A stretch of DNA of 32,000 nt, taken from positions 4,050,001 to 4,082,000 of the forward strand of contig NC_010546.1 of assembly GCF_000017845.1 (NCBI RefSeq). The letters are read 5' to 3'. Below, piece by piece: positions 1-22,271 of the stretch (its first letter is position 1; each line of letters begins with the position of its first letter). Both the position numbers and the translations under genes were made by a program. This DNA comes from Crocosphaera subtropica ATCC 51142 (lineage in GTDB: Bacteria > Cyanobacteriota > Cyanobacteriia > Cyanobacteriales > Microcystaceae). The notes under the pieces are model-generated. The model did no database searches. It saw only the letters and a program-made list of their open reading frames with translations, and had not been told where the DNA came from.

Positions 1-2053
1 TAATGAAATTTTCGTGTCCCTTTAAAGTTTGCTCACAAATACCTGTTTTAAGATGCCAAATTTTAATTTGATTATCCATTCCACCACTGGCAAAAATAGA
101 TTGATGAGGATGCAAACTGACCGATAAAACGCTTTGTGAGTGGCCTTGAAATTGTCTTAATTCTTGTCCAGTTGAAATTTCCCATAATTTAATAGTCGTG
201 TCTTCGCTACTACTCATTAAATAACAATTATCCTGACTAAATGATAAATCCCAAATATAGCTATTGTGACCATTTAAAGTCATTAAAGGGGTTAAATCGG
301 GAAAACACCAAAGACGAATCTTTCCCCCTGAATCTCCCGTGGCTAACAGTTGTCCATCATGACTAAATTTGAGTGAAAAAATACTGCCAAAAGTTTGTGT
401 AAATTGACAATGAATTAAACTCGCTTTGGTAAAGTTGACATTGTTTAAAATTCTTCCTTGTAGATGACCATGACAAATTGATAACCCAGAAAAATCATAG
501 TCACTTAAGTTAACCCCTAAGTATCGAGTTAAATTGAAAAAGTTGCCACCCCCATAATGATGAACTTGTTTCGGATATTGTTTAAGTTGTTTCAGAATTT
601 TATGACAATGTTGGCTCAAATAAGTTTGAGAGGTTAAACTCTGGGTTAATTTTTTCGCAATAGGTTCTAAAATCAGTCTTAATTGAGTTTGATGAAGATA
701 ATCTTTTACATTCGTAGGGGTTAAAGATAATTCTAAAAAGAGAGAAAAATTGAGGGAAATTAATTCAGTTGTTATGGTTTTAACTAAATGTTCGGTAACA
801 TATTCCATCACCACAGGCTGTAAAGTATAGGTATCTTGTTGATTTTCCAGCAGCGATCGCCATCTTAAAGATTCTAAAGCGTCTAAAATATGATTTGGCT
901 CAATCCAAGATGATAGTTGTTCAGTTAAGCTTTTGATCTTTGTCCATTCTCGATTAATGGCTAAGAGATAGATGATCTTTTTTTCTAAGTCTGATAACCG
1001 AGAAAACTGCTGATCAATCAACCGATGAATATTATTAAAAGCAAAAGTGTTTTGAGCTAAAAATTGTTGAATTTTCCCCTCAAATAAATCTTGGATAGAT
1101 GTTGCCAAAATCTTCAAAGCTAACGGATTACAACGATAATGTTCTACTAATTTTTGTTTTTCTTGGCTAGATCCTTTTAACCCTTTCGCATTTAAAAGAG
1201 CCATTCCTGCTTCTAATGATCCTCTTAAATTTAAAGAACGAACTGATAATTTTACTCCTTCTAATTCAGCCACCTCTAATGGTTTTTCTCGTGAGGTCAG
1301 GAGGAGACAACTTTGATGGTTATTTTCTCCAATTAATCGTAAGAGTTTGCCATAATCTTCATAGTCAAGACGATATTGACCCACAACTGTCTTCGGTTCA
1401 AATAGGGTTTCAAAGTTATCTAAAATAATCAAACAACGTCGATTTTTTAACCAATATAGTAACCTTTTAAAACTTAGTTCATCATCTTGTTGATCAGACA
1501 GAAAAGGAATTAACTCGATTAATAACGTATTTAAGAATGGAGCATTTGTCAGCGATCGCCAAATCACTAAATCAAACTCAGACGTTATTTCTTTCGCTAA
1601 TTTGATGGCTAAAGTGCTTTTGCCAACCCCTCCTAAACCCAATAAAGAAATTAATTTACAATTATCTTTTAAAAGCCAAGTTTTTAGCTTATTTAATTCT
1701 GATATTCTGCCCCAAAAATACTCAGTTTCAATTGCTTCTCCCCAATCTTGATGTTTATTAAATTTTAGGGTTACTTGTTGATTTAAGTCTGTTTTAGATT
1801 TGCGCTCTAAAGCTGCTTTAAAATTAGTTTTACTAACCTTTTCTCCTAAAACTTGGCTGAGTTTTTTCCATAATTTAGGACCAATATCTCGCCTTAAATA
1901 ACTATCAGCATAACCTGCCTTATCAGCAATTTGGTCATAAGTTTCATCTTGCCATGCTCCTACTAAGATGATAGTTTCTACATCACTGAGATATTTTCCT
2001 GTTGTTTTATAAACTAAATTATTTACTAATAGCAAAGATTGTTCAAGAGTCAT
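1..2053 (-). CDS. STAND NTPase: LuxR/sigma70-region-4-like HTH + NB-ARC/NACHT-type P-loop + pentapeptide-like linker + WD40 repeats; the C-terminus runs off the left window edge
   Basis: Reverse-strand ATG at 2053-2051. My translation begins MTLEQSLLLVNNLVYKTTGKYLSDVETIILVGAWQDETYDQIADKAGYADSYLRRDIGPKLWKKLSQVLGEKVSKTN. Walker A GLGGVGKSTLA, Walker B-like LIILDNFE, LLLTSREKP and CNPLALKI (GxP-like) motifs. WD40 units such as GHSQSVLSVSLHP...NQIKIW, and GHENFI at position 1. I spot-translated both ends (about 2053-1560 and 500-1) plus part of the middle. Continuity of the rest is inferred from the absence of any listed minus-strand ORF here (ORFs without an in-window stop appear to be omitted from the track). 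Confidence 0.8.
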   Translation of the reverse strand, partial: MTLEQSLLLVNNLVYKTTGKYLSDVETIILVGAWQDETYDQIADKAGYADSYLRRDIGPKLWKKLSQVLGEKVSKTNFKAALERKSKTDLNQQVTLKFNKHQDWGEAIETEYFWGRISELNKLKTWLLKDNCKLISLLGLGGVGKSTLAIKLAKEITSEFDLVIWRSLTNAPFLNTLLIELIPFLSDQQDDELSFKRLLYWLKNRRCLIILDNFETLFEPKTVVGQYRLDYEDYGKLLRLIGENNHQSCLLLTSREKPLEVAELEGVKLSVRSLNLRGSLEAGMALLNAKGLKGSSQEKQKLVEHYRCNPLALKILATSIQDLFEGKIQQFLAQNTFAFNNIHRLIDQQFSRLSDLEKKIIYLLAINREWTKIKSLTEQLSSWIEPNHILDALESLRWRSLLENQQDTYTLQPVVMEYVTEHLVKTITTELISLNFSLFLELSLTPTNVKDYLHQTQLRLILEPIAKKLTQSLTSQTYLSQHCHKILKQLKQYPKQVHHYGGGNFFNLTRYLGVNLSDYDFSGLSICHGHLQGRILNNVNFTKASLIHCQFTQTFGSIFSLKFSHDGQLLATGDSGGKIRLWCFPDLTPLMTLNGHNSYIWDLSFSQDNCYLMSSSEDTTIKLWEISTGQELRQFQGHSQSVLSVSLHPHQSIFASGGMDNQIKIWHLKTGICEQTLKGHENFI

Positions 2054-2267
2054 AGTTAATTTGGGTTTAAGTAGAGAAAGAAAAACATAAGTCTTAGACT
2101 AAATTTTCAACTTAACTGTAAAGACATGGGCAATTGCTAATAGTCCAAGATTTCCAGCGTTTTCATTATTTTTAACATAGATCAATATCTTAATGGAAAC
2201 CATAACTATTTTAAGATTCATGTTCCTCATATTCGTTTTGGGGATAAATATTCTTACCTCTTCAAAA

Positions 2268-2314
2268 AAGTTAAGTCCTTAAGGTAAGAAAAGTTAAGTA
2301 TCAGCAAAGTTAAG
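2268..2314 (+). promoter_or_regulatory. Three exact direct copies of the octamer AAGTTAAG (2268-2275, 2291-2298, 2307-2314) in the divergent intergenic region; candidate operator/activator boxes
   Basis: Read directly: aaaAAGTTAAGtccttaaggtaagaaAAGTTAAGtatcagcaAAGTTAAGctt. Inverted near-copies: CTTAACTG at 2111-2118, CCTAACTT at 2333-2340, and exact CTTAACTT at 5073-5080 in the second promoter region. Confidence 0.35.
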
Positions 2315-2330
2315 CTTAAACGCTTCTATC

Positions 2331-2376
2331 TCCCTAACTTTTCTGTATCGACTCTCAGTTTAATTCAGTTTATAAA
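2331..2376 (+). promoter_or_regulatory. Putative promoter A: conserved box TCCCTAACTTTTCTGTA + -35-like TCGACT (2348-2353) + 17-nt spacer + -10 TATAAA (2371-2376)
   Basis: Paralogous to 5071-5116 at an ungapped offset of exactly 2740 nt (core 23-mer 20/23 identical). Lies 38 nt upstream of the ATG at 2414. GGAGAC Shine-Dalgarno at 2402-2407. Confidence 0.4.
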
Positions 2377-2413
2377 AGTAATATCAACCCATCAGATTAA
2401 CGGAGACAAAATC

Positions 2414-2674
2414 ATGAAACTTATTTATAGAGGGATTCAATACGATAACACCAACACACCTAACATCGTGAACCAAGAGAAACAACTGACAGCTAAATAT
2501 CGAGGAATCAGCTATCAAGTTTCTTTAAATTCCCAAAAAGCTAAACAAGTCAATCATATTTTGAAGTATCGAGGGGTTAACTATAACAGTCAACCTAACA
2601 AAAATGTTCTTCAAACCACTCCTTATTCTACTGGTATCGACGGTGATCATATTCCTAATCATTTAATCGCATAA
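2414..2674 (+). CDS. DUF4278-family small protein with three YRG(I/V)xY repeats
   Basis: 86 aa: MKLIYRGIQYD...AKYRGISYQ...LKYRGVNYN. The MKLxYRGxxY N-terminus is the hallmark of the cyanobacterial DUF4278 family. Good SD sequence. Confidence 0.7.
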   Translation: MKLIYRGIQYDNTNTPNIVNQEKQLTAKYRGISYQVSLNSQKAKQVNHILKYRGVNYNSQPNKNVLQTTPYSTGIDGDHIPNHLIA

Positions 2675-2788
2675 GACCATTGATACCTAATATCTAGAGA
2701 CTGAGGAAAGAAATTTCTAATCCCTATTGTTATCTTTAATTTCTATCTCAATCCCTTGCTAATTTACACACACATTTTGGACAAAATC

Positions 2789-3715
2789 ATGACTATTGCT
2801 AAACCTTCTCCGACGATTGAACTAAAAACATCAGAGAGAATTAACCTAAAACTTTTACCCTGGATAATCTCAACTCTACTCAAAAAAACTGACAGTAATT
2901 ATCAACCTACTCTCATCGGTCATATTCTCTTAGCCTTAGTTTTATCCTGTACCTTCTTTGGCAGTTATGCCCTACATATTCATCGTTCTGCTGCTCGTTT
3001 AAATCAATGGTTAAATCCTTCAACAACCGTGGAAACAGATGTTACGCTTCAACGCCTCGAAAGTAAGATGGCAGAAGCACAACAACAACTCAAAAAAACA
3101 ACAAAACCTGAAACAAAACATAACATCGAACGTACTTTATCTGAGCAAGAAAGACTGAAAACGCAATTATATGAAATCGATAAAAGACTGGAACGTTATC
3201 GATACATGATGGTCTTTTTTTACAGTCGTAATTATGCGTCAATTACTTTAACAACCTTTTCTGCAATCATTGCTGGTTCTTGTGTTTTATTAATTAGTCG
3301 TGCAGGTTGGCAACGCATTAATAATCTTGTCATTCATCTCTGTATTTTTTCTTCAGGTTGCGTCATTTTATTTTCTGACATCTCAGGTATCTTTCAATAT
3401 GACCTAAATTACCAAAATGTCGCTAATATTTATGGCGAACACATGACGCTAAAAAATGCCATTCGTAGCTTTTTTGCCACTGGGGGATTTCTTCAAGAAA
3501 ATCCAAATACCGGAGAAACCCAATACATCGAATTACAAGACACAAACCGCTTTATTTATTACGTCGATCAACAACTAACCAAGTTTAATCAAATTCCCTT
3601 AGCTATCGATAATTCTACCCTAGAACGAGTTGTTAATTCTGCCAATTTAGGAGATCAATTGGGAGATAGAATTTCCTTCGATGTCCCCGAATCTGCTAAG
3701 GAAATACCTCAATAA
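2789..3715 (+). CDS. 3-TM membrane protein with a central coiled coil; the TM hairpin plus following helix is loosely SLATT/DUF4231-like (candidate pore/holin-like effector)
   Basis: I prefer the ATG at 2789 (MTIAKPSP...) over the TTG at 2756. Hydrophobic helices: LIGHILLALVLSCTFFGSYAL, ASITLTTFSAIIAGSCVLLI, LVIHLCIFSSGCVILFSDISGI. Charged heptad-like stretch: LQRLESKMAEAQQQLKK...QERLKTQLYEIDKRLERYRY. The family assignment is pattern-based only. Confidence 0.6.
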   Translation: MTIAKPSPTIELKTSERINLKLLPWIISTLLKKTDSNYQPTLIGHILLALVLSCTFFGSYALHIHRSAARLNQWLNPSTTVETDVTLQRLESKMAEAQQQLKKTTKPETKHNIERTLSEQERLKTQLYEIDKRLERYRYMMVFFYSRNYASITLTTFSAIIAGSCVLLISRAGWQRINNLVIHLCIFSSGCVILFSDISGIFQYDLNYQNVANIYGEHMTLKNAIRSFFATGGFLQENPNTGETQYIELQDTNRFIYYVDQQLTKFNQIPLAIDNSTLERVVNSANLGDQLGDRISFDVPESAKEIPQ

Positions 3716-3780
3716 ACGATTAGCAGAAATTTAGTGAAAAGTTTGTCCATTTAGTTCCTATTATTCTGGAGATATTCATC

Positions 3781-4998
3781 ATGAACACCATCAAAGCAAC
3801 CACTCAAACTTTCCTCAAAAAAGTAGTAACCCAAGCCTCTCAACTCTCAGATAACCAAAAAGTACAAGTCCCCCAAGGAAAAACCTACCAAATTATTAAT
3901 TACGCTGAAGCAGAACAAGGTCACTACCAAGTAGAATTAAACTATGGTGCCGGAACCTGGTACCTTTGGTCAGGTCACTGGCAACTCCCCTGGGAAGATA
4001 ACCAAGAGGAAGCAGAAATTACAAAGACAGACTTCTTTTCCCCTGAAAATCTTAAAGCGATTATGCCAAATGCTACTTCGGCCGACATCGCTACCTATGT
4101 TAACCCCCTTAATAAAGTCTTGTCTGACTTTGATTTAGCCACAACCACTAGGGCTTGCGCCTTCATTGCTCAAATTGCTCATGAAAGCGGTTCTTTACGC
4201 TATAAAGAAGAAATCGCATCAGGGGCAGCCTATGAAGGACGACGGGACTTAGGCAACACTCAACCAGGAGACGGTAAACGCTTCAAGGGCAGAGGTTTGA
4301 TCCAACTCACCGGCAGGGCAAACTATCGTCAATGTGGACAGGCGTTAAATTTACCCCTAGAACAAAATCCCGAATTAGTTGTCAAAGATCCTTACACCAA
4401 TGCTGCGGTGGCCGGTTGGTATTGGCAAAGTCGTAACATTAACGCAGCAGCTGATGCTGGAGACTTTCAACGGGTGACACGGTTGATCAACGGCGGATTG
4501 AATGGATATAGCGATCGCCTTCAATATTGGGAGAGAGCTAAGAAAGTGTTAGGACAACAAGACCATCAAAAAAGCAATGTTCCTAGCTCTTGGAAAGCAG
4601 TGAACTGGAATGATGTCAATGCCAAGGTGTCCAACTATTTTACCGTCCGAGAAGTGATCAACGGCGATCGCCGTCGCATTCCCACTGATGACACCATTAA
4701 GCAAAACATTTTTACCTTAGCCCAAGAATTAGATAAGGTGCGAGAAGCCTGGGGATCTCCCATTATTGTCACCTCTTGGTATCGTCCCCCTGCCATTAAC
4801 CGTGCTATTGGTGGAGCGACCCGTTCTCAACATATTTTAGGAAAAGCTGCCGATATTCGACCGGTTCAGGGCAATTTATATCAATTCCAAGATTGGTTAG
4901 ATAAGGTAGCCTGGAAAGATAAAGCGTTGGGCTATGGGGCGAAAAAAGGCTTTGTCCATGTTGATCTGCGTCCTGGAAAGATTCGCTGGAATTATTAA
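3781..4998 (+). CDS. Two-catalytic-domain cell-wall hydrolase: N-terminal SH3-like module + GH19/COG3179 chitinase-lysozyme-like domain + peptidase M15A (zinc D-Ala-D-Ala carboxypeptidase-like) domain; no signal peptide
   Basis: GH19-type block: AFIAQIAHESGSLRYKEE...FKGRGLIQLTGRANY...AAVAGWYW...INGGLNG. M15-type zinc motif: SQHILGKAADI ... GFVHVDLRP. The N-terminus MNTIKATTQTFLKKVVTQASQLSDNQK is hydrophilic. Confidence 0.85.
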   Translation: MNTIKATTQTFLKKVVTQASQLSDNQKVQVPQGKTYQIINYAEAEQGHYQVELNYGAGTWYLWSGHWQLPWEDNQEEAEITKTDFFSPENLKAIMPNATSADIATYVNPLNKVLSDFDLATTTRACAFIAQIAHESGSLRYKEEIASGAAYEGRRDLGNTQPGDGKRFKGRGLIQLTGRANYRQCGQALNLPLEQNPELVVKDPYTNAAVAGWYWQSRNINAAADAGDFQRVTRLINGGLNGYSDRLQYWERAKKVLGQQDHQKSNVPSSWKAVNWNDVNAKVSNYFTVREVINGDRRRIPTDDTIKQNIFTLAQELDKVREAWGSPIIVTSWYRPPAINRAIGGATRSQHILGKAADIRPVQGNLYQFQDWLDKVAWKDKALGYGAKKGFVHVDLRPGKIRWNY

Positions 4999-5021
4999 AT
5001 CTTAGATGAGTTGACTAAACG

Positions 5022-5052
5022 GGGTTGATGAGTATCATCAACCCTAATTTTT
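5022..5052 (+). terminator. Rho-independent terminator after the hydrolase gene
   Basis: GGGTTGATGA (5022-5031), loop GTA, TCATCAACCC (5035-5044), then TAATTTTT. Perfect 10-bp stem. Confidence 0.6.
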
Positions 5053-5070
5053 GTCTTAACCGAAAATAAC

Positions 5071-5116
5071 TCCTTAACTTTTCTACATCGACTTTTCCAG
5101 AAAATCAGCCTATAAG
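5071..5116 (+). promoter_or_regulatory. Putative promoter B: conserved box TCCTTAACTTTTCTACA + -35-like TCGACT (5088-5093) + 17-nt spacer + -10 TATAAG (5111-5116)
   Basis: Paralog of 2331-2376. Followed by a 5' UTR with the hairpin GATCTCGAAGAGATC (5133-5147) and GGAGAC SD (5154-5159) before the ATG at 5170. Confidence 0.4.
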
Positions 5117-5169
5117 TATTACTAAAGAGGGGGATCTCGAAGAGATCACAATTTGGAGACAAGCTTCTG

Positions 5170-8100
5170 ATGTATGACTCAACTTCATCATATCAATACC
5201 AGGTGGGAGGAGGGCTACCCGCCAATGCCCCAAGTTATGTGGTTCGTAGTGCCGACGAAGAACTCTATCAAGCCCTAAAAGCAGGAACCTTCTGTTATGT
5301 TCTCAACTCTCGTCAAGTCGGTAAATCCAGTTTACGGGTAAGAGTAACCCAACGCTTACACCAAGAAGGCTTTGCCTGTGTTACTGTCGATTTATCGGGT
5401 ATTGGCAATCGCAACAGTAGCCCCGATCAATGGTATGCCGATATTATTATGCGTTTAGTTCGGGGTTTAGGACTGACAAAACAGATTCCTGTGCGTCGTT
5501 GGCTCGAAGAGCGGATGTTTCTCTCTCCTATCAATCGTCTAGCAGAAATATTACAAGAAGAACTCCCCAAAGCGATCGCCAAACCCATTGTTATCTTCTT
5601 CGATGAAATTGATAGTACCCTCAGTCTGCCTTTCAATACAGACGACTTTTTTGCGCTCTTACGGTCCTGTGACGAATACGATCATCTTACCTTTACCCTG
5701 TTAGGGGTAGCTACTCCCTCCGATCTCATTGCCGACAAAACCCGAACCCCTTTTAATATTGGTCGTGCCATTCAACTCCAAGGGTTTCAAGAAGCTGAAG
5801 TCAAACCTTTAATCTTAGGACTCACCCCAAAAGTGAAACAACCCCAATGGGTGATGAAAGAAATTTTAAGCTGGACAGGAGGACAACCCTTTCTGACCCA
5901 AAAACTCTGTCAATTAATGATTTCTCAAGGAGACAAGCTCCTAGATACCTCCCATGTGGCCAAGATTGTCCAAACTCAGATGATTGACAATTGGATCGCC
6001 CAAGACGAACCTCCCCATTTTCGCACCATCCGCGATCGCCTTCTTTGTCATGAACAACGGGCCAGTCGACTGTTAGGACTCTATCAACAAGTGTTAGAGG
6101 AAGGGCAACTGTTAGCCGATGATAGCCCCGAACAAATCGAACTCTTACTCTCAGGGTTAGTGGTGAAACAAGCCGGTTATTTACGCCCTTATAACCCCAT
6201 TTATCAAGCTATTTTCAACCTAGACTGGGTAGAAAAGCAATTGCAAACATTGCGTCCCTACGGAGAACGTCTTAACGCTTGGGTTCATTCTAACTACCAA
6301 GATCCCTCCCACCTCTTGCGAGGACAAGCCCTCATCGATGCCCAAACTTGGGCAAAAGGGAAAAACCTCAGTAACCAAGATTATCGCTTTTTAGCTGCCA
6401 GTCAAGAACAGGAAAAACAGGAAGTCCAAGGGACTCTCTTAATCACAGAACAAGCTAACCATATCCTAACCAAAGCTCAACAAAAAGCTAATCGCACCAT
6501 TCGTCGTGGTTTCTTGGGTTTATCCGTCGTCTCTGTTGTGGCCCTTTCCCTGTTAGGGATGGCGGGTTGGTTGACCCAGAAAACCGTCCGACAACAACAA
6601 CAGGTAGCTTTAGGAGAAGTCAAAGCTATGACCTTAGCTTCAGAAGCCTCCTTTGAAGCCCATCAAACCCTAAACGCATTATTAGAAAGCCTCAAAGCTG
6701 GTAACAAACTGACGGAGATAGGATGGCATCGAGCAGACACCGATCTCAAAATTCGTGTAGAAAAAGCCCTACATCAGTCTCTCTACCGAATACAAGAACA
6801 AAACCGCTTCAATGGCCATCAAGATATGGTCACACGGGTTAAATACAGTCCCGACGGACAAACCTTAGCCACAGCCAGTTGGGATAAAACCTTAAAAATT
6901 TGGGCTAAAGACGGAACCCTACTCCAAACCCTCAACGGCCATCAAGACGCAGTGTGGAGCGTTAATTATAGTCCCGATGGTCAATTCCTCGTCAGTGCCA
7001 GCCGAGATAAAACCGCTAAACTCTGGCGTGTGGCCGATGGAACCAAAGTGGCCACGCTTGATTTTAATGATGATTGGGTGGCTTGTGTGGGGTTTAGTCC
7101 CGATAGTCAACGGGTGGCTACCATGGGATGGAATGGGGTCGTCAAACTCTGGAATTTACAAGGGAAAGAGATCCTCTCCTTTAAAACCCACAATGCTCCT
7201 GTGATGGCTATTCACTACAGTCCGAAAGCAGAGTTAATTGCTACAGCGAGTCGGGATGGAACAGCCAAAATTTGGAATCTTCAAGGGGAAGCAGTGGCTA
7301 CCCTCCGAGGTCATCAAGATTGGGTCATGTATGTGAATTTTAGCCCCGATGGTCAAACGTTAGTGACAGGGAGTAAGGATAAAACCGCTAAACTTTGGGA
7401 TCTTCAGGGACGAGAATTAGCTACCTTAGAAGGTCATACAGAGACAGTAGGCAGTGGGGCGTTTAGTCGAGACGGTCAAACCATTGCCACAGCGGGTTTT
7501 GATAAAACAGTCCGTCTTTGGAATCGTCAAGGTAAACTCTTGAATGTTCTTCGTGGGCATACAGATGCGGTTTGGGGGGTGAATTTTAATGAAACGGGAC
7601 AAATTTTGGCCAGTAGTGGGGAGGATGGAACTGTACGCCTTTGGAATCTAAATCATGCCTTGAAATCAGCCCAAAGCCTCACTATACTCCCAGAAGAGGA
7701 TGCTGCTAAAGCCGATATTAGTCTCAGTCCCGATGGTCAATTATTAGGGACAGCCGGACGCTATACTATGGGGAAACTTTGGGATTTACAGGGGAATATG
7801 GTTGCTAAATTGAGCAGTCATGGGGATAACCTCAGAAGTATCGCATTTAGTCCCGATGGTCAATTATTAGTCACCGCAAGTCGGGATAAAACGGCTAAAC
7901 TGTGGAATCGACAGGGAGACGCTCTGGCTACCCTCCGTGGCCACCAAGGGGATGTGAGGGATGCCAGTTTTAGCCCTGATGGTCAATGGATTGTAACAGC
8001 CAGTTGGGATAAAACCGCTAAACTGTGGAATCGACAGGGACAAGTGTTATTCACCCTACAAGGTCATGAAGAGAGTATCAGACAGGTGGAGTTTAGCCCC

Positions 8101-8694
8101 AATGGTCAAATCATTGCCACTGCTAGTGATGATGGTACAGTTCAACTGTGGACTCCCCAAGGAAAGCCCTTAAACACCTTACGAGGGCATCAAGAAGGGG
8201 TGTTAGGGGTCGCCTTTAGCCCCGATAGTCAACGGGTAGTCACCGCCAGTAAAGATTCCACCCTCAAACTCTGGACGACCAAGGGGGAGGCGATCGCCAC
8301 GTTACGGGGCCATGAAACGGCAGTTAATTCTGTCAGTTTTAGTCCGGATGGTCAATTTATTGTCAGTGGGGGGAATGATGGTACGATTCGCCTCTGGACC
8401 AAAGACGGAACCCTCCTGCAAACCCTAGGGGGTCACGAGTCTGGGGTAAGAAAAGTCTTGTTTAGGCCCAATGGTCAGCAACTGATTTCTTCTGATGTAA
8501 CGGGGACTGTGATGCAGTGGGACTTAACCTTAGAGGCTAACCCTGAAACGTTACTAAAACAAGGATGTGAATGGGTTAAGGATTACTTGCAAACCAATCT
8601 CTATGTAAGCGAAACTGACAAACAGGTGTGCGCGCCGCAAAGCGGATCTCTTCGAGATCGCTTTCTTACTGCTAAAATATCCTTAACTCTCTAG
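5170..8694 (+). CDS. AAA-like (Pfam AAA_35-type) P-loop NTPase + single hydrophobic TM-like helix + 14 WD40 repeats (two 7-bladed propellers)
   Basis: Walker [11 protein letters not shown], Walker [19 protein letters not shown] and [14 protein letters not shown] blocks. Hydrophobic helix [22 protein letters not shown] (nt 6508-6573). Fourteen units of type GHQDxVxxVxFSPDGQxLATASxDKTAKLW. Confidence 0.9.
6814..8520 (+). repeat. Intragenic tandem array of about 123-nt WD40-coding units with near-identical DNA segments between some units
   Basis: GGGATAAAAC(G/C)GCTAAACTGTGGAATCGACAGGGA occurs at 7883 and 8006, exactly 123 nt apart with one mismatch. GATAAAACCGCTAAACT also recurs near 7008 and 7377. 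TTTAGTCCCGATGGTCAATTATTAG recurs near 7727 and 7847. Confidence 0.8.
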
Positions 8695-8710
8695 GGTGAC
8701 ATGATAGTTT

Positions 8711-10102
8711 ATGGCAGGTCGTCGTCAAGAACCCCTTATTTCTTTTGAAAATGCTTTAACCATTGCTGATCAAGCGGTTTTTTCCAAGACAGGAAGACAT
8801 CTCAAAAATATTGAAGTTGCTGTCTTACAAGGCTCTTTATTGGGTCATAATTACGACCAAATTGCTGATGAAGTGGGTTATGCACCAGAATATATCAAAC
8901 ACGATGTTGGTCCAAAATTGTGGAAACTTCTCTCGGCCAGCTTTGGAGAAAAGGTGAGCAAAACCAATGTGATGGCGGTCTTAGCGCAACAAACCCATCG
9001 CCATAACACCACTTCTGTGTTGCCTGGAGACAATGGCTTTAAACCTTCTGCCTTAGAACCCCCAGTCGGACCGGTTTCCCTTCACTCTCCCCTTTACCTA
9101 CAACGGCCTCCCATTGAATCTCGTTGCTACGACGAGATTTTACGTCCCGGTTCTTTGATCCGCATCAAAGCCCCCCGTCAAATGGGAAAAACGTCTCTGA
9201 TGCTGCGAATCTTAGACCATGCTAAACAACAATTAGAGCATGATGGGGTGATGACTGTAGCCTTGAGTTTACAACGGGCTGATAAAGCTGCATTTTCAGA
9301 TTTAGATCGCTTCTTACGTTGGTTTTGTACGGTCATTACCCGCAAACTCAAACTCCCCTATCGGGTTGAAGACTACTGGAGTGATACGTTTGGCAGCAAA
9401 AGCAACTGTACCGCCTATTTTGAAGATTGCATTCTATCAGAAATTGACGGGCCTTTAGTGTTGGCCTTAGACCAAGTGGATGAAGTCTTTCTACATCCAG
9501 AAGTGGCGGATGATTTTTTCACTTTACTCCGTTCCTGGTACGAAGAAGCTTCCTATGGAGACAGTGGCAACCCCCTTTGGCAAAACCTTCGTCTAATCAT
9601 TGTTCATTCTACAGAAGTTTATATTCCCCTTGATATTAATAAATCTCCCTTTAATGTGGGGTTAGCAATCGAATTACAACCGTTTACCTTTGACCAGGTT
9701 TCTATCTTGGCTAAATCTTATGCTCTAAACCTCTCAAACGCTGATCTTCAGCAACTTATGGACTTCATTGCTGGCCACCCTTATTTAGTACAACAAGCCC
9801 TGTATCATCTGGCTACCCAAAACCTTACCCTAGAAGGGTTGATCAACACAGGGGCAACCGATGCGAGTATTTATCATCATCATCTTCATCGATTATTACA
9901 AAATTTGCGAGAACATCATATTTTATCAACCACTTATCAACAAGTTTTAGAAGCATCAGCGCCGATTGAATTGGAACAATTACCAGCGTTTAAATTACAT
10001 AGTATGGGTTTGGTTGTTTTACAAGGAAATCAAGTAATCTCAAGTTGTCAATTATATAGGCAATATTTTTTAACAAAAAACATTGTCTGTGATGAAGGAT
10101 AA
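8711..10102 (+). CDS. LuxR/sigma70-r4-like HTH module + AAA-like (AAA_35-type) P-loop NTPase
   Basis: N-terminus LKNIEVAVLQGSLLGHNYDQIADEVGYAPEYIKHDVGPKLWKLLSASFGEKVSKTN is paralogous to the N-terminus of the 1-2053 gene. Walker A APRQMGKTSL, Walker B LALDQVDEV, DDFFTLLRS and SPFNVGLAIELQPF are paralogous to the 5170 NTPase. Only 16 nt separate it from the upstream stop. Confidence 0.85.
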   Translation: MAGRRQEPLISFENALTIADQAVFSKTGRHLKNIEVAVLQGSLLGHNYDQIADEVGYAPEYIKHDVGPKLWKLLSASFGEKVSKTNVMAVLAQQTHRHNTTSVLPGDNGFKPSALEPPVGPVSLHSPLYLQRPPIESRCYDEILRPGSLIRIKAPRQMGKTSLMLRILDHAKQQLEHDGVMTVALSLQRADKAAFSDLDRFLRWFCTVITRKLKLPYRVEDYWSDTFGSKSNCTAYFEDCILSEIDGPLVLALDQVDEVFLHPEVADDFFTLLRSWYEEASYGDSGNPLWQNLRLIIVHSTEVYIPLDINKSPFNVGLAIELQPFTFDQVSILAKSYALNLSNADLQQLMDFIAGHPYLVQQALYHLATQNLTLEGLINTGATDASIYHHHLHRLLQNLREHHILSTTYQQVLEASAPIELEQLPAFKLHSMGLVVLQGNQVISSCQLYRQYFLTKNIVCDEG

Positions 10103-13886: not shown

Positions 13887-14159
13887 GTTAGAAATTTTTT
13901 ATATTTTTTTAAGACTTGCATCCCATTGTACAAGGTAACGGAACCAGTATTTTGAGAATAAACCGTGAAAAGGCAAAAATGCTAAGAGAATCTTTAGCTT
14001 ACTTCAGTGGCGTAATTAATTAACGTTTCATCAGGGTTAGACATCGCTATATTTAAAAGAATACATAGAAATTTTGAATGAATTAACTTGACATTAACCC
14101 AAAATAAGCAACTTACTCTTAAGCTTAGAGATAAATCAAACAATAACCAGCTTATCGTC

Positions 14160-16121
14160 ATGATTCAGAAAATTGCTCGTATTTTCTTAAGCACGTTATT
14201 CTGTATTTTACTGGTAGCTAAACCCAGTTGGGCTATTAATGTGTCTCCTGGCGATCGCATTGAACTCCAAGCCACTTCTTCCTTAGGCGTTCCCCTTCAT
14301 GATCGTCCGTCTCCAAGCTTAGTGGGCAGAACACCCGATAAAACCATTGCCGAAGTGGTAGCGATAGCCAATGATCAACGCTGGATTGAGATCAAGTTAC
14401 CCTCTGGGGCGCAAAATTGGATTGTAGAGCGATATATCGGTCGTATCGTCTCATCTTCGGGGGAAACCATCGATACTCGTGAAGTAACTAACTTGCTATC
14501 GGGAGAAGATAAGCTCACTGTAGCAGCCATGAACGTAGAAAATTTAGACCCAGACGATAGCGATCGCTTAAATCCTTTGGGTAAACTCATTGTTAACAAT
14601 TTAAAATCTCCCGATATTATCGTTCTGATTGAAATACAAGATAACGATGGTCCCAATAATTCAGACATTACCGACGGAACCGAAACTTATAATGCTTTAA
14701 TTGATGCCATTACCACGGCTACGGGACCTGATTATATTGCCTTTGATATTCCCCCTGGCGATGACAAAGACGGAGGACAACCGGGGGGCAATATTCGTGT
14801 CGGTTATCTATATCAACCCTCTAGAGTGGCGTTAAACCCAGGAACTGCAGGAACGGCAACAGATACAGTTACCGTTTTAGAAGGTCCAACATTATCCTTA
14901 AACCCTGGCCGCATTGAACCCGATAATGGTGCGTTTCAGAACAGTCGTAAGCCGATTGTAGCTGAGTTTCAATTTAAGCAAAATCCTATATTTATCATCG
15001 GTAATCATTTTGTTTCTCAACGGGGTGGTAATGATGATAAACGACGAAAACAAGCGACGGTGGTGGGGAATTTTGTTAAAGCGTTATTGTCTGAAGATAG
15101 CAAAGCCAATGTGATTGTCGCAGGGGATCTTAATGATGTGATTGATTCAGAACCTATTACTATTTTAGAAAGGTCTGGATTGACCAATTTGTCTAAGTTA
15201 TTGCCTCCAAGCGATCGCTATACCTATGAATTCAACAATAATCTTCAACAACTTGATTACATTTTAGTCAGTGACAATTTATTCACCACAGGTAAGAGTC
15301 AATTTGATATTGTTCATGTTAATGTCAATCAACCCAGTAATCTCGCTTTGAGTGATCATGATGTGGTACTCGGTCAATTTCCCTTACCTGAAATGGCTGA
15401 AATGCTAGAAACCCCGTCTTCTGAAAGCATTTTTCCAGACTTGAGTGGAGAAGCGTTACGCTCACGTTTAGCAACAGAATATCGAGTGAAAACCAGTTTA
15501 GGATACGATAATGCAAGAGACTTTATGTACAGCGAACTGGATAATGAAAACGGTATGGTTAGGGGAATTTATTCGGATTTTACCGTGGAAGTTAATCCTA
15601 ATTCTTCTCGTCCTCGATCAGATGCTTATCAAAAGGGGAAAGGAATTAATGCTGAACATTCTTGGCCTCAAAGTAAAGGAGCAACTGGGGTGGCTAAAAG
15701 TGATATCCATCATCTTTTTCCCACTCAAGTAAGAGTGAATAGTCTTCGGGGTAGTTTTCCGTTTGCAGAAATTGAGGATAGTCGCACCGAACGCTGGCTA
15801 ATCGATAACCGAGAGGAAAACACCATTCCTAGCAGTAATATTGATGCTTATAGTGAATGGATCAACGGTGGTTTTGAACCTAAAGAAAGTGTGAAAGGGA
15901 ATATTGCCAGAGCCTTGTTTTACTTTTACACGATTTATCGGGATCAAGCCGAAGAAGGTTTCTTTGAGGGGCAACAAGATACCCTTTGTGATTGGAATGT
16001 CAATGATCCTGTCGATGCTGCTGAACTCAAACGCACTCATGAAATTGCGCTAAAACAAGGCAATGATAATCCTTTTGTTGTTGATCCAACCTTAGCAAAG
16101 CGTCTCTATTGTAATCCTTAA
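14160..16121 (+). CDS. Secreted dual nuclease: signal peptide + SH3-like module + endonuclease/exonuclease/phosphatase (EEP) domain + endonuclease I (EndA-type) domain
   Basis: Start preferred at ATG 14160 (MIQKIARIFLSTLFCILLVAKPSWA). EEP blocks: AAMNVENLD, VLIEIQDNDG, IGNHF, AGDLND, DYILVS, LSDHD. Endonuclease I blocks: INAEHSWPQSKG, DIHHLFPTQVRVNSLRGSFPF, GNIARALFYFYTIY. Confidence 0.85.
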   Translation: MIQKIARIFLSTLFCILLVAKPSWAINVSPGDRIELQATSSLGVPLHDRPSPSLVGRTPDKTIAEVVAIANDQRWIEIKLPSGAQNWIVERYIGRIVSSSGETIDTREVTNLLSGEDKLTVAAMNVENLDPDDSDRLNPLGKLIVNNLKSPDIIVLIEIQDNDGPNNSDITDGTETYNALIDAITTATGPDYIAFDIPPGDDKDGGQPGGNIRVGYLYQPSRVALNPGTAGTATDTVTVLEGPTLSLNPGRIEPDNGAFQNSRKPIVAEFQFKQNPIFIIGNHFVSQRGGNDDKRRKQATVVGNFVKALLSEDSKANVIVAGDLNDVIDSEPITILERSGLTNLSKLLPPSDRYTYEFNNNLQQLDYILVSDNLFTTGKSQFDIVHVNVNQPSNLALSDHDVVLGQFPLPEMAEMLETPSSESIFPDLSGEALRSRLATEYRVKTSLGYDNARDFMYSELDNENGMVRGIYSDFTVEVNPNSSRPRSDAYQKGKGINAEHSWPQSKGATGVAKSDIHHLFPTQVRVNSLRGSFPFAEIEDSRTERWLIDNREENTIPSSNIDAYSEWINGGFEPKESVKGNIARALFYFYTIYRDQAEEGFFEGQQDTLCDWNVNDPVDAAELKRTHEIALKQGNDNPFVVDPTLAKRLYCNP

Positions 16122-19704: not shown

Positions 19705-22269
19705 ATGAAATTTCCATTTTATCCTCGTTATTTATCTTTCTATCTTCCTCTAGTTATTAGTCTTTTCATAGGAGGAGGACTTTCAATTTTGCTTACTTTA
19801 ATATATTGGTCTTCAGAAGTTTACAAAGTTAAGACAAATTTTGAAAAACAAGGAGATCATTTGGTTGAAAATTTACAACAACATATTCAAGAATATATCA
19901 ACATTACGGACGCATTAGGAGCATTTTATGAGGCTTCAGATCAAGTTACACGCCAAGATTTTAAACTTTTTACCGAACATTTTTTAGATGAAAATTTAGG
20001 AATTTTAGGAATGGCCTGGGTTCCAAAAGTTTCCCAAAAAGACCGTTTTCTTTATGAAGAAGAAATGAAAAAAGCCGGATTTCCAAATTTTAAAATTTGG
20101 ACTAAACAGGGAAATAATCTTAGGGATAGAAATGAATATTTCCCAGTAACCTACGGCGAACCCAAAGAAATTTATCACTCAGTTATTGGTCTAGAATTAA
20201 GTTCAAGTGAAATTTTAAATAGTCCATTAAAAAAAGCAAGAGATACAGGGGAAATTACTGCGAGTCAGCCAGTTAAGCTAATTAATGAAGGTCAAGGTTT
20301 TATGTTATACTATCCCGTCTATCGTCGGGAAAGTTATGCTGAAACTGTTGAAGAACGTCGTCAAGAATTTAAGGGAATTGTTTATACAGTTTATCGACTT
20401 GAAGATTTAATTAAACTTACGCTACATCATTCATCTTCTCCTAACCGTAGTTTTTTTCTGAGTAATACACCAACTTTACAAGATAATAGCATTATTTTAA
20501 GTTTTGATGCTGATACACAAATCATTAACACAACGACAAGGCTTCCGTTTTCAATACCATCAAGCTGTCAAAGCTTATTACAATGCCAGAGAAAAATAAC
20601 AATAGCTGATACTCACTGGTTTATAACAATAATTCCTACAAATCAACAGAACTTAATTATTATAAAATCTGTTTTTGTTTTTCTATTAGGATTACTATTG
20701 ACGGTATTAATAACAACCTATTTATGGAAAACTTTATCAGAAAAAAATCATATTGAACAAGTTATTACCGAAAGAACAAATGCTTTAATCAAAACCACTG
20801 AAGAATTAGAACAAATAGTTGAACAAAGAACTAATGAATTAGAAAAAGCTAATGAAGAGAAAAATCAAATCCTAGATAAAATTAATCATGAATTAAGAAT
20901 CCCTTTGAATAATGTTTTGGGTTTTTTAGATTTATTAGGTTCAGAACATAGTTTAACAGAAAAGAAAGACAATAGTCTTCAGATTATACAGGAAAATAGT
21001 CAGTATTTATTGAGATTGTTTAATCAAATATTGGAATTTTCTAAGGTAACATCAGGGGAGATATTAATTCAATGTAATATTGTTAATTTAGAGAATTTAG
21101 TGACTACCGTTTTGAAGCAATTTGAGCAACAAGCTGAAGTGAAAAAACTCACGTTAAGTTATTCTATTGATTCAGAAGTTTTTCCCTATCTAAAAATTGA
21201 TGAAAGTAAACTGATTAAAATTTTAAGTAATCTGCTAGATAACGCTATAAAGTTCAGTAATCAAGGGATTATTACTATTAGAGTATTTTGTGATAATCAG
21301 GCGTGGCTTTTAGATAATGAGATTGATGATTACACTGATGATAACTTTCAAAAAAATCTTTGGATTGAAATAGAAGATCATGGAAATGGTATTCCGATAG
21401 AAATTCAAGAAAAAGTTTTTGATCCTTTTTTTAGATCAAAAGATAATAAAGGAGTTGGTTTAGGATTATCTATTACTCATAAATTAGTCGATTTAATGGG
21501 GGGAAAAATTTATTTAAAAAGTCAATTAGGTCAAGGAACAATCGTTCAATTTCATTTTCCAGTCACGGTTCCTAAACCCGAAGAAATTTATAAAACTCCT
21601 ACAAACCAAAAAATAGTAAGTATTGCTAATTATGAACCAGACTATCGTATTTTAGTTATTGATGATCAAATTGAAAGTAGAGAAGTATTCATCAATTTTT
21701 TAGAACCTCTTGGTTTTCAGCTTAAACAAGCAAATTACCTAGAAAATGCTCTTAATATAGCGCAAAATTGGCATCCTCATTTGATTTTTATAGATATTAA
21801 AATACTTTTTTTAAATAAGAAAGTCAATCTGAAGAAGCTTAAAAATTATTGCTCATTAGAGCAGGTTATTGTTATTGGAATAGCATCAGGAAAATTTGAA
21901 GATAGTCAAGTCAATAAATTGCAATTTTGGTGTGATGATTGTCTTTATAAACCATTTGCTATTGAACTTATTTTAGACAAAATAAACTATTATTTAGGAG
22001 TTCGCTATCGTTATGAACATGAAGAAAATGAAATAATTAGTACAGGAAAAATTGTCAAAAAATTAAACTCTGCTTCTGTAGCAATGATGTCTTCACAGTG
22101 GCTTGAGCAAGTTTATTGGGCTGCTAGTTCAGGAAACAGTAATGTTTTAAAAGAATTAATTCAACAAATACCTGATAATTATTCTCCAGTGATAAACGGG
22201 ATGATGGAATTAGTTAATACTTTTAATTATCGTAAAATTAGACAAATTATTCAACCCTTGATTGATTAA
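19705..22269 (+). CDS. Hybrid sensor histidine kinase: TM + CHASE-type extracytoplasmic domain + TM + coiled coil + HisKA + HATPase_c + receiver + C-terminal helical (Hpt-like, no obvious His) module
   Basis: CHASE-like FKLFTEHFLDENLGILGMAWVPKV...YFPVTY...ASQPVKLINEGQGFMLYYPVY. H-box INHELRIPLNNVLGF, N-box NLLDNAIKF, DHGNGI, GVGLGLSI. Receiver ILVIDDQ...LIFIDIK...LYKPF. Confidence 0.85.
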   Translation: MKFPFYPRYLSFYLPLVISLFIGGGLSILLTLIYWSSEVYKVKTNFEKQGDHLVENLQQHIQEYINITDALGAFYEASDQVTRQDFKLFTEHFLDENLGILGMAWVPKVSQKDRFLYEEEMKKAGFPNFKIWTKQGNNLRDRNEYFPVTYGEPKEIYHSVIGLELSSSEILNSPLKKARDTGEITASQPVKLINEGQGFMLYYPVYRRESYAETVEERRQEFKGIVYTVYRLEDLIKLTLHHSSSPNRSFFLSNTPTLQDNSIILSFDADTQIINTTTRLPFSIPSSCQSLLQCQRKITIADTHWFITIIPTNQQNLIIIKSVFVFLLGLLLTVLITTYLWKTLSEKNHIEQVITERTNALIKTTEELEQIVEQRTNELEKANEEKNQILDKINHELRIPLNNVLGFLDLLGSEHSLTEKKDNSLQIIQENSQYLLRLFNQILEFSKVTSGEILIQCNIVNLENLVTTVLKQFEQQAEVKKLTLSYSIDSEVFPYLKIDESKLIKILSNLLDNAIKFSNQGIITIRVFCDNQAWLLDNEIDDYTDDNFQKNLWIEIEDHGNGIPIEIQEKVFDPFFRSKDNKGVGLGLSITHKLVDLMGGKIYLKSQLGQGTIVQFHFPVTVPKPEEIYKTPTNQKIVSIANYEPDYRILVIDDQIESREVFINFLEPLGFQLKQANYLENALNIAQNWHPHLIFIDIKILFLNKKVNLKKLKNYCSLEQVIVIGIASGKFEDSQVNKLQFWCDDCLYKPFAIELILDKINYYLGVRYRYEHEENEIISTGKIVKKLNSASVAMMSSQWLEQVYWAASSGNSNVLKELIQQIPDNYSPVINGMMELVNTFNYRKIRQIIQPLID

Positions 22270-22271
22270 TT

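Follow-up and report, generated by a model that had tools for sequence, protein, structure and literature searches.

Why does the chromosome of a cyanobacterium carry a gene pair that resembles a lysis cassette next to genes for three STAND ATPases, and what connects the two? The question arises from a stretch of 32,000 nt of Crocosphaera subtropica (Cyanothece) ATCC 51142 (contig NC_010546.1, positions 4,050,001 to 4,082,000), in the following called the window, in which the locus comprises the genes cce_3920 to cce_3925. These six genes form a chromosomal island with two transcription units on the plus strand, each with one copy of a common promoter that is conserved in cyanobacteria. Unit 1 (cce_3921–cce_3923) encodes a small DUF4278 protein, a protein with three transmembrane (TM) segments and a hydrolase with GH19 and M15 domains. 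Unit 2 (cce_3924–cce_3925) encodes an AAA_35-TM-WD40 ATPase and an AAA_35 ATPase with a helix-turn-helix (HTH) domain, and the gene of the third STAND ATPase, cce_3920, is oriented divergently. A previous interpretation made from the letters alone (the sequence-only reading) had viewed the locus as a sensor-and-executioner system, in which NLR-like ATPases control a built-in lysis module. The features it named were all recovered in place by Pfam searches, hydropathy and checks of the terminator and promoter sequences. Comparison across cyanobacteria revealed that the hydrolase gene is paired with the gene for the membrane protein in five lineages, and that the promoter element is widely distributed and co-localizes with genes for ATPases and DUF4278 proteins. 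The locus is not a fixed multi-gene defence system: its parts are linked by regulation, through a shared operator and HTH-bearing ATPases, and not as a conserved operon.

The promoters of both units have the same layout: a nearly invariant 28-nt operator that overlaps a weak -35 element (TCGACT), a spacer of 17 nt and a -10 box TATAAA or TATAAG. Copy 1 of the operator, TATCTCCCTAACTTTTCTGTATCGACTC, spans positions 2327–2354 of the plus strand with TCGACT at 2348–2353. It is followed by the -10 hexamer TATAAA at 2371–2376 (17 nt after TCGACT), a predicted transcription start near position 2383 and a GGAG ribosome binding site at 2402–2405. Copy 2, TAACTCCTTAACTTTTCTACATCGACTT, spans 5067–5094 of the plus strand with TCGACT at 5088–5093, and again 17 nt separate TCGACT from the -10 hexamer, TATAAG (5111–5116). 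With a position weight matrix (PWM) the two copies scored 39.2 and 38.8 bits, respectively, versus a best score of 10.3 bits in 20 shuffles. The 19-mer TAACTTTTCTRYATCGACT occurs twice in the window (at 2335 and 5075) versus 0.05 expected copies, and nowhere else in it. The two units had been assigned paralogous promoters by the sequence-only reading; the 19-mer count and the PWM scores confirmed that this similarity is real and not due to chance, and the element recurs across cyanobacteria. Upstream of copy 1, three AAGTTAAG repeats (at 2268, 2291 and 2307; 2268–2314, plus strand) are each the reverse complement of the operator core CTTAACTT and are candidates for additional binding half-sites. 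The AAGTTAAG half-sites are kept in Cyanothece BG0011 and in locus L003, and partly in L005. By eye, we rejected NtcA (GTA-N8-TAC), HLR1 and LexA-type boxes as the identity of the operator, as the conserved bases do not fit. No mention of the operator sequence was found in the searchable literature. A perfect 6-bp hairpin (GATCTC-GAA-GAGATC) lies at 5131–5147 in the predicted 5' untranslated region of the AAA_35-WD40 gene; its folding energy is no better than that of shuffled sequences (z = -1.3).

The operator is kept upstream of the cassette in L001–L007, precedes the hydrolase in six lineages and is also kept upstream of the AAA_35-WD40 orthologue in BG0011, despite an inversion. In L009, L010 and L016 it is directed at a gene for a LamG protein, with weaker divergent copies toward the hydrolase gene, and it is directed at LamG genes in L210 and L266 as well. 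An exact-pattern scan (18 nt) of metagenome contigs returned 120 loci, mostly chance matches inside genes. The extended architecture was present in 32 unique metagenomic instances, with the consensus AAnTCCTTAACTTTTCTGTATCGAC-N18-TATAAA; TATAA was invariant both in this consensus and in the promoter alignment. Extended promoters had on average 0.97 inverted half-sites upstream of the operator, versus 0.12 for chance-type matches. In viral contigs no extended operator was detected; the four matches there were all of the chance type. The most common first gene downstream of extended operators encoded a DUF4278 protein (at least seven independent cases), and AAA_35(-WD40) genes followed with at least five. 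In other cases the first downstream gene encoded an LCAT-like lipase, an ABC transporter, condensation modules of non-ribosomal peptide synthetases (NRPS), or a LamG-like, RTX or other giant protein. Wall-related proteins without a leader were also encoded directly downstream of the operator, with the domain combinations VanY plus PG_binding_1 and PG_binding_1 plus SLH. At L269 (5825–8381) the operator is followed by the gene for a leaderless VanY-PG_binding_1 peptidase and then by a gene for a 430-aa protein with coiled-coil, three TM segments and TPR. An operator-DUF4278 unit diverges from this pair of genes, and 6 kb away lies an AAA_35-TM-WD40 gene with an operator of its own. L269 is an independent analogue of the cassette in the window, with non-homologous effector parts and the same logic.

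Homologues of the ATPases (HTH-AAA_35, AAA_35-WD40 or NB-ARC) were present in 12 of 28 extended-type loci versus 1 of 89 chance-type controls (Fisher p = 4e-8). At the operator loci the HTH domains of HTH-AAA_35 homologues were 63–76% identical, AAA_35-WD40 proteins 65–74% (8 loci) and NB-ARC proteins 35–42%. HTH-AAA_35 homologues were encoded near operator sites in L219, L220, L244, L266 and L284, and a 5'-truncated one in L291. A PWM site was located ahead of every AAA_35-WD40 gene with a visible 5' end. Stand-alone HTH-AAA_35 genes had no site of their own; in L219 and L220 an operator-DUF4278 unit followed directly, and L291 resembles this layout, with the HTH-AAA_35 gene cut at the contig edge. 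This is the order usually seen for a regulator gene and its target. With its weak -35 element, a conserved operator upstream and several half-sites, the promoter seems to depend on an activator. The obvious candidates for this role are the HTH-bearing STAND ATPases, since they are encoded beside operator promoters, and by analogy to MalT and AfsR.

By precomputed Pfam matches, two of the three ATPases in the window carry the HTH_VMAP-M9 domain. The gene cce_3925 (8711–10102, plus strand) starts 16 nt after cce_3924 and encodes an HTH_VMAP-M9 plus AAA_35 ATPase (PF14516, E 8.6e-144, model positions 2–330 of 331), a candidate transcription activator. The minus-strand gene cce_3920 (1–2053) runs off the window start, so that its 5' 684 of 1169 codons are included. 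The full protein (L295) has 1169 aa and consists of HTH_VMAP-M9, NB-ARC and WD40 parts with 13 WD40 matches; the NB-ARC domain (PF00931) was detected with E 2.8e-13 (50.2 bits versus a cutoff of 23.5) and has the Walker A motif GLGGVGKS at residue 139. The N-terminal 86 aa of cce_3920 are 44% identical to the N-terminus of cce_3925. The third ATPase, cce_3924 (5170–8694, plus strand), has an AAA_35 domain at residues 15–349 (E 2.5e-26, model positions 5–329 of 331), a single TM segment at about 448–468 and 13–14 WD40 repeats. Its WD40 part is probably periplasmic, because the TM segment sits between the ATPase and the WD40 repeats and the positive charges (RTIRRGF) are on its N-terminal side. 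A search with PADLOC-DB v2 (Avs, bNACHT, CBASS effectors and others) on the six proteins gave WD40-repeat matches to HEAT-ARM_XIII only, and nothing for the DUF4278, 3-TM, hydrolase and HTH-AAA_35 proteins. No PADLOC system matched, in agreement with the previous view that this is not a described defence system.

What would such a regulator control in Crocosphaera? The last gene of unit 1, cce_3923 (3781–4998, plus strand), encodes a bifunctional murein hydrolase with the Pfam domains Glyco_hydro_19 (residues 137–218, muramidase-type) and Peptidase_M15_3 (307–395). The protein is leaderless: the hydropathy profile showed no hydrophobic N-terminus and no TM segment. An additional N-terminal domain (about residues 1–85) is conserved; no family was assigned to it in Pfam searches. 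E135 (in an AHESG motif), H351, D358, H393 and D395 were invariant in 20 full-length homologues down to 45% identity. We take these to be the catalytic Glu of GH19 and the zinc-binding and catalytic residues of M15, so both domains look active. The best PDB matches were the phage endolysins 9ms7 (E 1.4e-42) and 4ok7, not chitinases. The PHROG endolysin families phrog_181, 9506, 894 and 28234 cover both domains, and IMG/VR contigs encode GH19 domains with 50–57% and M15 domains with 64–65% identity. In the Microcystis phage Ma-LMM01 the adjacent genes for gp068 (GH19) and gp069 (M15) have the same order as the domains of cce_3923, with 51% identity (L306, NC_008562.1, 51615–53069). Judged from this match in order and from the PHROG and IMG/VR relatives, cce_3923 unites in one protein an endolysin pair of the cyanophage type and an added conserved N-terminal domain. 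A scan of genome contigs with the hydrolase alignment yielded mostly GH19 domains from Myxococcota and recovered few full-length relatives.

Two orthologues are interrupted. In a Dactylococcopsis metagenome-assembled genome (MAG; L016, 2360–4552) an insert of about 960 nt with an open reading frame (ORF) for an HNH_3 endonuclease (2957–3757) interrupts the hydrolase gene. The insert has a full-length but sub-threshold match to group I introns (3506–3794; 28.5 bits, E 1e-4); here an endolysin-type gene of a cell might contain a self-splicing intron. In L017 (10001–12342) the gene is broken by a transposase of the IS4/5 family of insertion sequences (IS; DUF4096 plus DDE_Tnp_1), indicating that the hydrolase is dispensable in that lineage.

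The genes for the 3-TM protein and the hydrolase lie side by side in five lineages: the window, Cyanothece BG0011 (L001/L002), L003/L004, L005–L007 and L008. Across these, identity goes down to 58% for the 3-TM protein and 77% for the hydrolase, and a DUF4278 gene is located ahead of the pair in three of the five. In lineages that lack the 3-TM gene, the same hydrolase is flanked by unrelated multi-TM genes (274 aa in L009 and L016, 329–375 aa in L014 and L017). Such an exchange of membrane partners is typical of lysis cassettes. Conserved adjacency, the endolysin-type hydrolase and the swapped partners thus make the pair of membrane protein and muralytic enzyme look like a lysis pair, as had been proposed. 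Other neighbourhoods were also observed. In a Crocosphaera MAG (L014, 5749–13601) the gene for a 78%-identical hydrolase comes ahead of genes for a multi-TM protein of 375 aa, unrelated to cce_3922, and for a patatin-like phospholipase, and two DUF2589 proteins are encoded ahead of the hydrolase on the opposite strand; this is a different candidate death or effector neighbourhood. In L011 (7378–11215) 76 nt separate the end of a gene for an 848-aa AAA_16/nSTAND3-like NTPase from a downstream hydrolase gene (66% identity) without an operator; this NTPase is a second and unrelated STAND-like neighbour.

Could the hydrolase be a decaying remnant of cyanophage lysis genes, or an ordinary wall-remodelling enzyme without special regulation, beside ATPases that are its neighbours by chance, given how many such genes cyanobacterial genomes contain? 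The close phage relatives of both catalytic domains, the interruptions by an IS (L017) and an intron-like insert (L016) and the variable gene context would suit this explanation. We nevertheless consider it very improbable, as the residues read as catalytic do not vary among the homologues, the 3-TM partner is conserved alongside the hydrolase, six lineages have a dedicated conserved operator ahead of the hydrolase, and no other phage genes are nearby.

The linkage of the cassette to the ATPase genes is much less constant. Elsewhere, the AAA_35 pair was located beside the cassette only in the sister genome of Cyanothece BG0011 (92% and 88% identity), and there it is inverted. IS605 OrfB/TnpB-like genes are present on both sides of the BG0011 cassette-NTPase block (L001, 919–2157 and 17719–18954); together with the inverted pair this suggests an IS-mediated rearrangement. 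The AAA_35 pair was absent from the flanks of L003, L005–L007, L008, L009, L013 and L014, another 160 GH19/M15 loci lacked it as well, and the NTPase/DUF4278 loci found via the operator never contained a 3-TM or hydrolase gene. The fixed cassette-NTPase linkage proposed by the sequence-only reading is therefore not supported, as synteny, on which that reading had itself made the linkage depend, is not conserved beyond BG0011. Its sensor-and-executioner model survived in part: the lysis pair, the SLATT-like nature of the membrane protein (see below) and the shared promoter stood, and the conserved adjacency of NTPases and cassette was lost.

The candidate membrane permeabilizer cce_3922 (2789–3715, plus strand) has 308 aa with hydrophobic segments at 46–64, 151–169 and 180–198, long helices and coiled-coil character. 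It matched no Pfam model, including SLATT and DUF4231, even at E up to 1. Among 5.8 billion clusters there were seven close homologues, all Crocosphaera/Cyanothece-like. A profile of these seven found 322 representatives (144 at E ≤1e-10), which share residues 110–280, i.e., a helix, the TM hairpin and the C-terminal domain; a third search with the family profile added one new protein, and no Pfam family covers these relatives. Among 46 family members NCBIfam SLATT_4 was matched in 16 (best E 5.8e-8), SLATT_1 in 11 and Pfam SLATT_5 in one, with the individual scores that we inspected below the curated cutoffs. PADLOC gave scattered single matches only over the 46 members. An AlphaFold2 (AF2) model from the 46-sequence alignment had a pLDDT of 87.4 and a pTM of 0.78, with helices at 107–172 and 179–231; an earlier AF2 run with the seven close homologues had reached a pLDDT of 59 and was unusable. 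The model predicts a characteristic of the SLATT fold, a two-TM hairpin (151–169, 180–198) inside long helices. In a fold search of BFVD, SLATT proteins occupied ranks 1, 5, 7, 8, 12, 22, 23 and 27 (E 4e-3 to 0.14, none below 1e-3), and a PDB search returned generic long-helix matches (BAR, chemoreceptor), none at E ≤1e-3. We regard cce_3922 as remotely SLATT-like and unproven as a SLATT member. The earlier guess that the 3-TM protein belongs with SLATT was borne out in this sense, by the NCBIfam matches of its relatives and by BFVD.

SLATT-like proteins and STAND ATPases with WD40 repeats would both be expected in a fixed system against phages, whose NLR-like NTPases would recognize phage proteins and license a SLATT/hydrolase executioner directly. 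This is the sequence-only reading taken literally; the SLATT family is predicted to form pores in conflict systems (PMC7159879), and cassette and NTPases are adjacent in two genomes. The lack of conserved adjacency and of PADLOC matches, the predicted position of the cce_3924 WD40 domain outside the cytoplasm, and executioner genes that share no nucleotide-signal enzyme or effector-adaptor domain make such a system improbable. Nucleotide-signal domains (SMODS, SLOG, TIR and similar) were not detected in the window or in L001–L008.

A giant leaderless Laminin_G_3 protein (2279–2590 aa) is encoded divergently next to the cassette or hydrolase in BG0011, L005–L007 and L009/L010, and as a fragment in L016. 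This arrangement, together with the operators directed at LamG genes in L009, L016, L210 and L266, would fit a lytic device similar to a type 10 secretion system (T10SS), through which a subpopulation of lysing cells would free giant LamG/RicinB proteins that lack a leader; the NTPases would then be irrelevant or upstream regulators only. The transcriptionally coupled T10SS release of Tc toxin provides a precedent (PMC10847048). The cassette has, however, no adjoining LamG gene in the window, L003 or L008, searches of Pfam and PHROG revealed no spanin and no recognized holin family at the locus, and no relative of the LamG protein with a solved structure or from a toxin family was found. We consider a device of this kind unlikely.

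The reading that we prefer combines regulation and lysis: the HTH-bearing STAND ATPases would be activators at the shared operator, the AAA_35-TM-WD40 protein would be the sensor, and the regulon of the Crocosphaera clade would include a self-lysis pair. By analogy to MalT, a signal would cause the HTH-bearing ATPases to oligomerize and to activate transcription at the operator. The AAA_35-TM-WD40 protein cce_3924 would act as a periplasm-facing sensor partner, and its cytoplasmic AAA_35 domain could co-assemble with the HTH-AAA_35 protein. Activation would turn on a regulon of DUF4278 genes, genes for giant leaderless LamG/RTX proteins, NRPS genes and genes for wall-active enzymes; in the Crocosphaera clade, induction would yield the DUF4278 protein, the SLATT-like protein and the leaderless hydrolase. 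The SLATT-like protein may then permeabilize the membrane, so that the hydrolase would reach the murein and the producing cell would lyse. Lysis may serve either an abortive or altruistic death or the release of giant leaderless proteins.

Several observations speak against this combination of activators and self-lysis. Expression, binding and lysis are predicted from sequence. No operator was detected at the cassette of L008 or at the hydrolase of L011, L013 and L014, and no PWM site of at least 14 bits is directed at the NB-ARC gene in the window. No ATPase homologue was visible in the available DNA of 16 of the 28 extended-type loci, many of them on short contigs. The HTH call comes from precomputed PF26355 matches, and our own Pfam run did not detect an HTH; the N-terminal domain shared by cce_3920 and cce_3925 might be a protein-protein adaptor rather than a DNA binder. 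As to lysis, cce_3922 itself matched no NCBIfam SLATT model at E up to 0.1, its BFVD fold matches (4e-3 or weaker) have low TM-scores, it has no homologue in the phage collections (IMG/VR, INPHARED, PHROG), it is far larger than typical holins, and members of the wider SLATT-like family occur in unrelated, uninformative gene contexts. With these points included, we give the combination of STAND activators, membrane sensor and self-lysis pair slightly less than an even chance.

The missing HTH detection and the operator loci without a visible ATPase homologue would also be expected if the operator belonged to another regulator or to an alternative sigma factor encoded elsewhere. The ATPases would then be members of the regulon that act at the protein level, e.g., as NLR-like sensors, and would merely be co-expressed with the lysis pair. 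The breadth of the regulon (NRPS, RTX, LamG, lipase, ABC transporter) suits a global regulator, and the AAA_35-WD40 genes are themselves operator targets. Against this stand the very strong enrichment of HTH-AAA_35 genes immediately beside operator sites and the site-less HTH-AAA_35 genes directly ahead of operator-DUF4278 units in L219 and L220, and we consider a regulator encoded elsewhere somewhat unlikely.

The components of the locus are all of known kinds (STAND ATPases, SLATT, endolysins, lysis cassettes); the gene set and the operator are undescribed in the literature that we searched, in which we also found no mention of cce_3920–cce_3925. In its most far-reaching form our reading would be that of an undescribed type of cyanobacterial signalling. 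A membrane AAA_35-TM-WD40 sensor together with HTH-bearing STAND ATPases, as NLR-like transcription factors, would directly activate a nearly invariant 28-nt operator, and the output in Crocosphaera would include a SLATT-type pore and a cyanophage-derived endolysin for programmed lysis, in defence or for release. We regard this full version as possible but doubtful. If it is true, bacterial NLR-like STAND ATPases control cell fate via transcription and not via fused effectors, SLATT-like proteins gain a concrete holin-like partnership with an endolysin, and cyanobacteria have a conserved regulon (DUF4278, giant LamG/RTX proteins, NRPS, wall-active enzymes) with a sequence-defined operator. Crocosphaera is an abundant marine N2-fixer, and its programmed lysis would be relevant to the release of carbon and nitrogen into the sea. 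For engineered cyanobacteria, a lysis switch whose promoter is defined would also be a useful means of product release.

The surroundings of the locus are of the housekeeping type, with ridA and gidB to the left and genes for a DUF4168 protein, ftsY, accA, folE, a CHASE kinase and thrS to the right. Phage structural, integrase and transposase genes, said before to be lacking nearby, were indeed found neither in the window nor just left of it, and megablast against plasmids gave no match to the locus. The GC content changes at about the start of the hydrolase gene from 32–37% (1–4000) to 44–48% (4000–9000), a step that would fit an island of mosaic origin. Unit 1 ends at a strong intrinsic terminator (5021–5052, plus strand) with an 11-bp stem (5021–5045) with five GC pairs, a 3-nt loop and the T-run AATTTTTGTC. 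Its first gene, cce_3921 (2414–2674, plus strand), encodes the 86-aa DUF4278 protein (Pfam E 5.8e-19). Two PHROG families without an assigned function, phrog_5049 (E 9.5e-14) and phrog_545, match this protein, so DUF4278-like small proteins occur in phages, too. The DUF4278 domain is part of the glutamine synthetase (GS) inactivating factor IF17, in which the IF7-like C-terminal region mediates the interaction with GS (PMC6212724). The window contains no glutamine (glnA) riboswitch and no other Rfam family, and we rejected cce_3921 as an IF17-like factor for want of this riboswitch and because of its length of only 86 aa, though the DUF4278 domain is present. No conserved RNA structure was detected in the spacer between the DUF4278 and 3-TM genes. 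Further downstream, the domains endonuclease/exonuclease/phosphatase and Endonuclease_1 are fused in a 677-aa ORF (14088–16121); its product is perhaps a secreted nuclease and is unrelated to the locus. At 19705–23723 (28–30% GC) a CHASE-domain hybrid histidine kinase and, after a gap of 2 nt, a response regulator-PAS-GGDEF diguanylate cyclase look like a signalling pair.

How does the locus compare to known systems? As in phage holin-endolysin cassettes, a leaderless muralytic enzyme is encoded beside a membrane protein, and this membrane partner is exchanged between lineages, as holins are. The similarity to gp068/gp069 of Ma-LMM01 in domain order and sequence (51% identity) is clear, but in cce_3923 both enzymes are fused and extended by the conserved N-terminal domain. 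Unlike phage holins, the 308-aa, SLATT-like cce_3922 belongs to no holin family of Pfam or PHROG and is absent from phage collections. The window pair is also chromosomal, non-prophage and driven by the promoter of a host regulon.

In T10SS, large leaderless proteins such as YenLC and the Tc toxin of Yersinia entomophaga are released in a holin/endolysin-dependent manner (PMC10847048, PMC10101115). Shared with these systems are a chromosomal, non-prophage lysis cassette of phage origin, a putative transcriptional coupling to giant proteins without a leader (in four lineages a LamG gene with the same operator is the neighbour) and, putatively, a dedicated regulator. In contrast to T10SS, neither a spanin nor a recognized holin was found at the window locus, the cassette has no cargo gene beside it in this genome, STAND ATPases would take the place of PhoB-like or other classical regulators, and the host is a cyanobacterium.

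SLATT domains were reportedly described by Burroughs and colleagues in 2015 as SMODS and SLOG-associating 2TM effector domains of conflict systems. With them cce_3922 shares a TM hairpin between long helices, relatives that reach SLATT_4 and SLATT_1, and SLATT proteins as top BFVD matches. It differs in that it matches no SLATT model itself, carries one more TM helix at its N-terminus and has a further domain of about 100 aa at its C-terminus. Pore formation has been predicted for SLATT domains (Kaur et al. 2020, PMC7159879). No nucleotide-second-messenger enzyme is encoded near cce_3922, and its partner is a murein hydrolase, a pairing of SLATT-like protein and endolysin for which we found no description in the literature.

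Avs and bNACHT systems and the STAND/EAD systems of multicellular bacteria (PMC7159879) also combine NB-ARC/STAND ATPases and WD40 repeats with effectors of the cell-death type, and peptidoglycan-attacking effectors are mentioned for some STAND/EAD conflict systems (PMC7159879). The window locus differs by its lack of PADLOC matches, by an effector that is neither fused nor adaptor-linked to the ATPases and is connected to them by the shared promoter, and by one sensor that is predicted to face the periplasm.

The ATPases themselves can be compared to transcription activators. MalT, AfsR and GutR are activators of the STAND class, and as in these proteins a P-loop STAND ATPase is combined with a repeat sensor and an HTH; the window promoters likewise have a weak -35 element and several asymmetric upstream boxes. 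The putative DNA-binding HTH of the window proteins is, however, N-terminal and of the HTH_VMAP-M9 type, and the ATPase is of the AAA_35 or NB-ARC type. A further difference is that two proteins appear to share these roles, the membrane protein AAA_35-TM-WD40 as the sensor and the soluble HTH-AAA_35 protein as the DNA binder.

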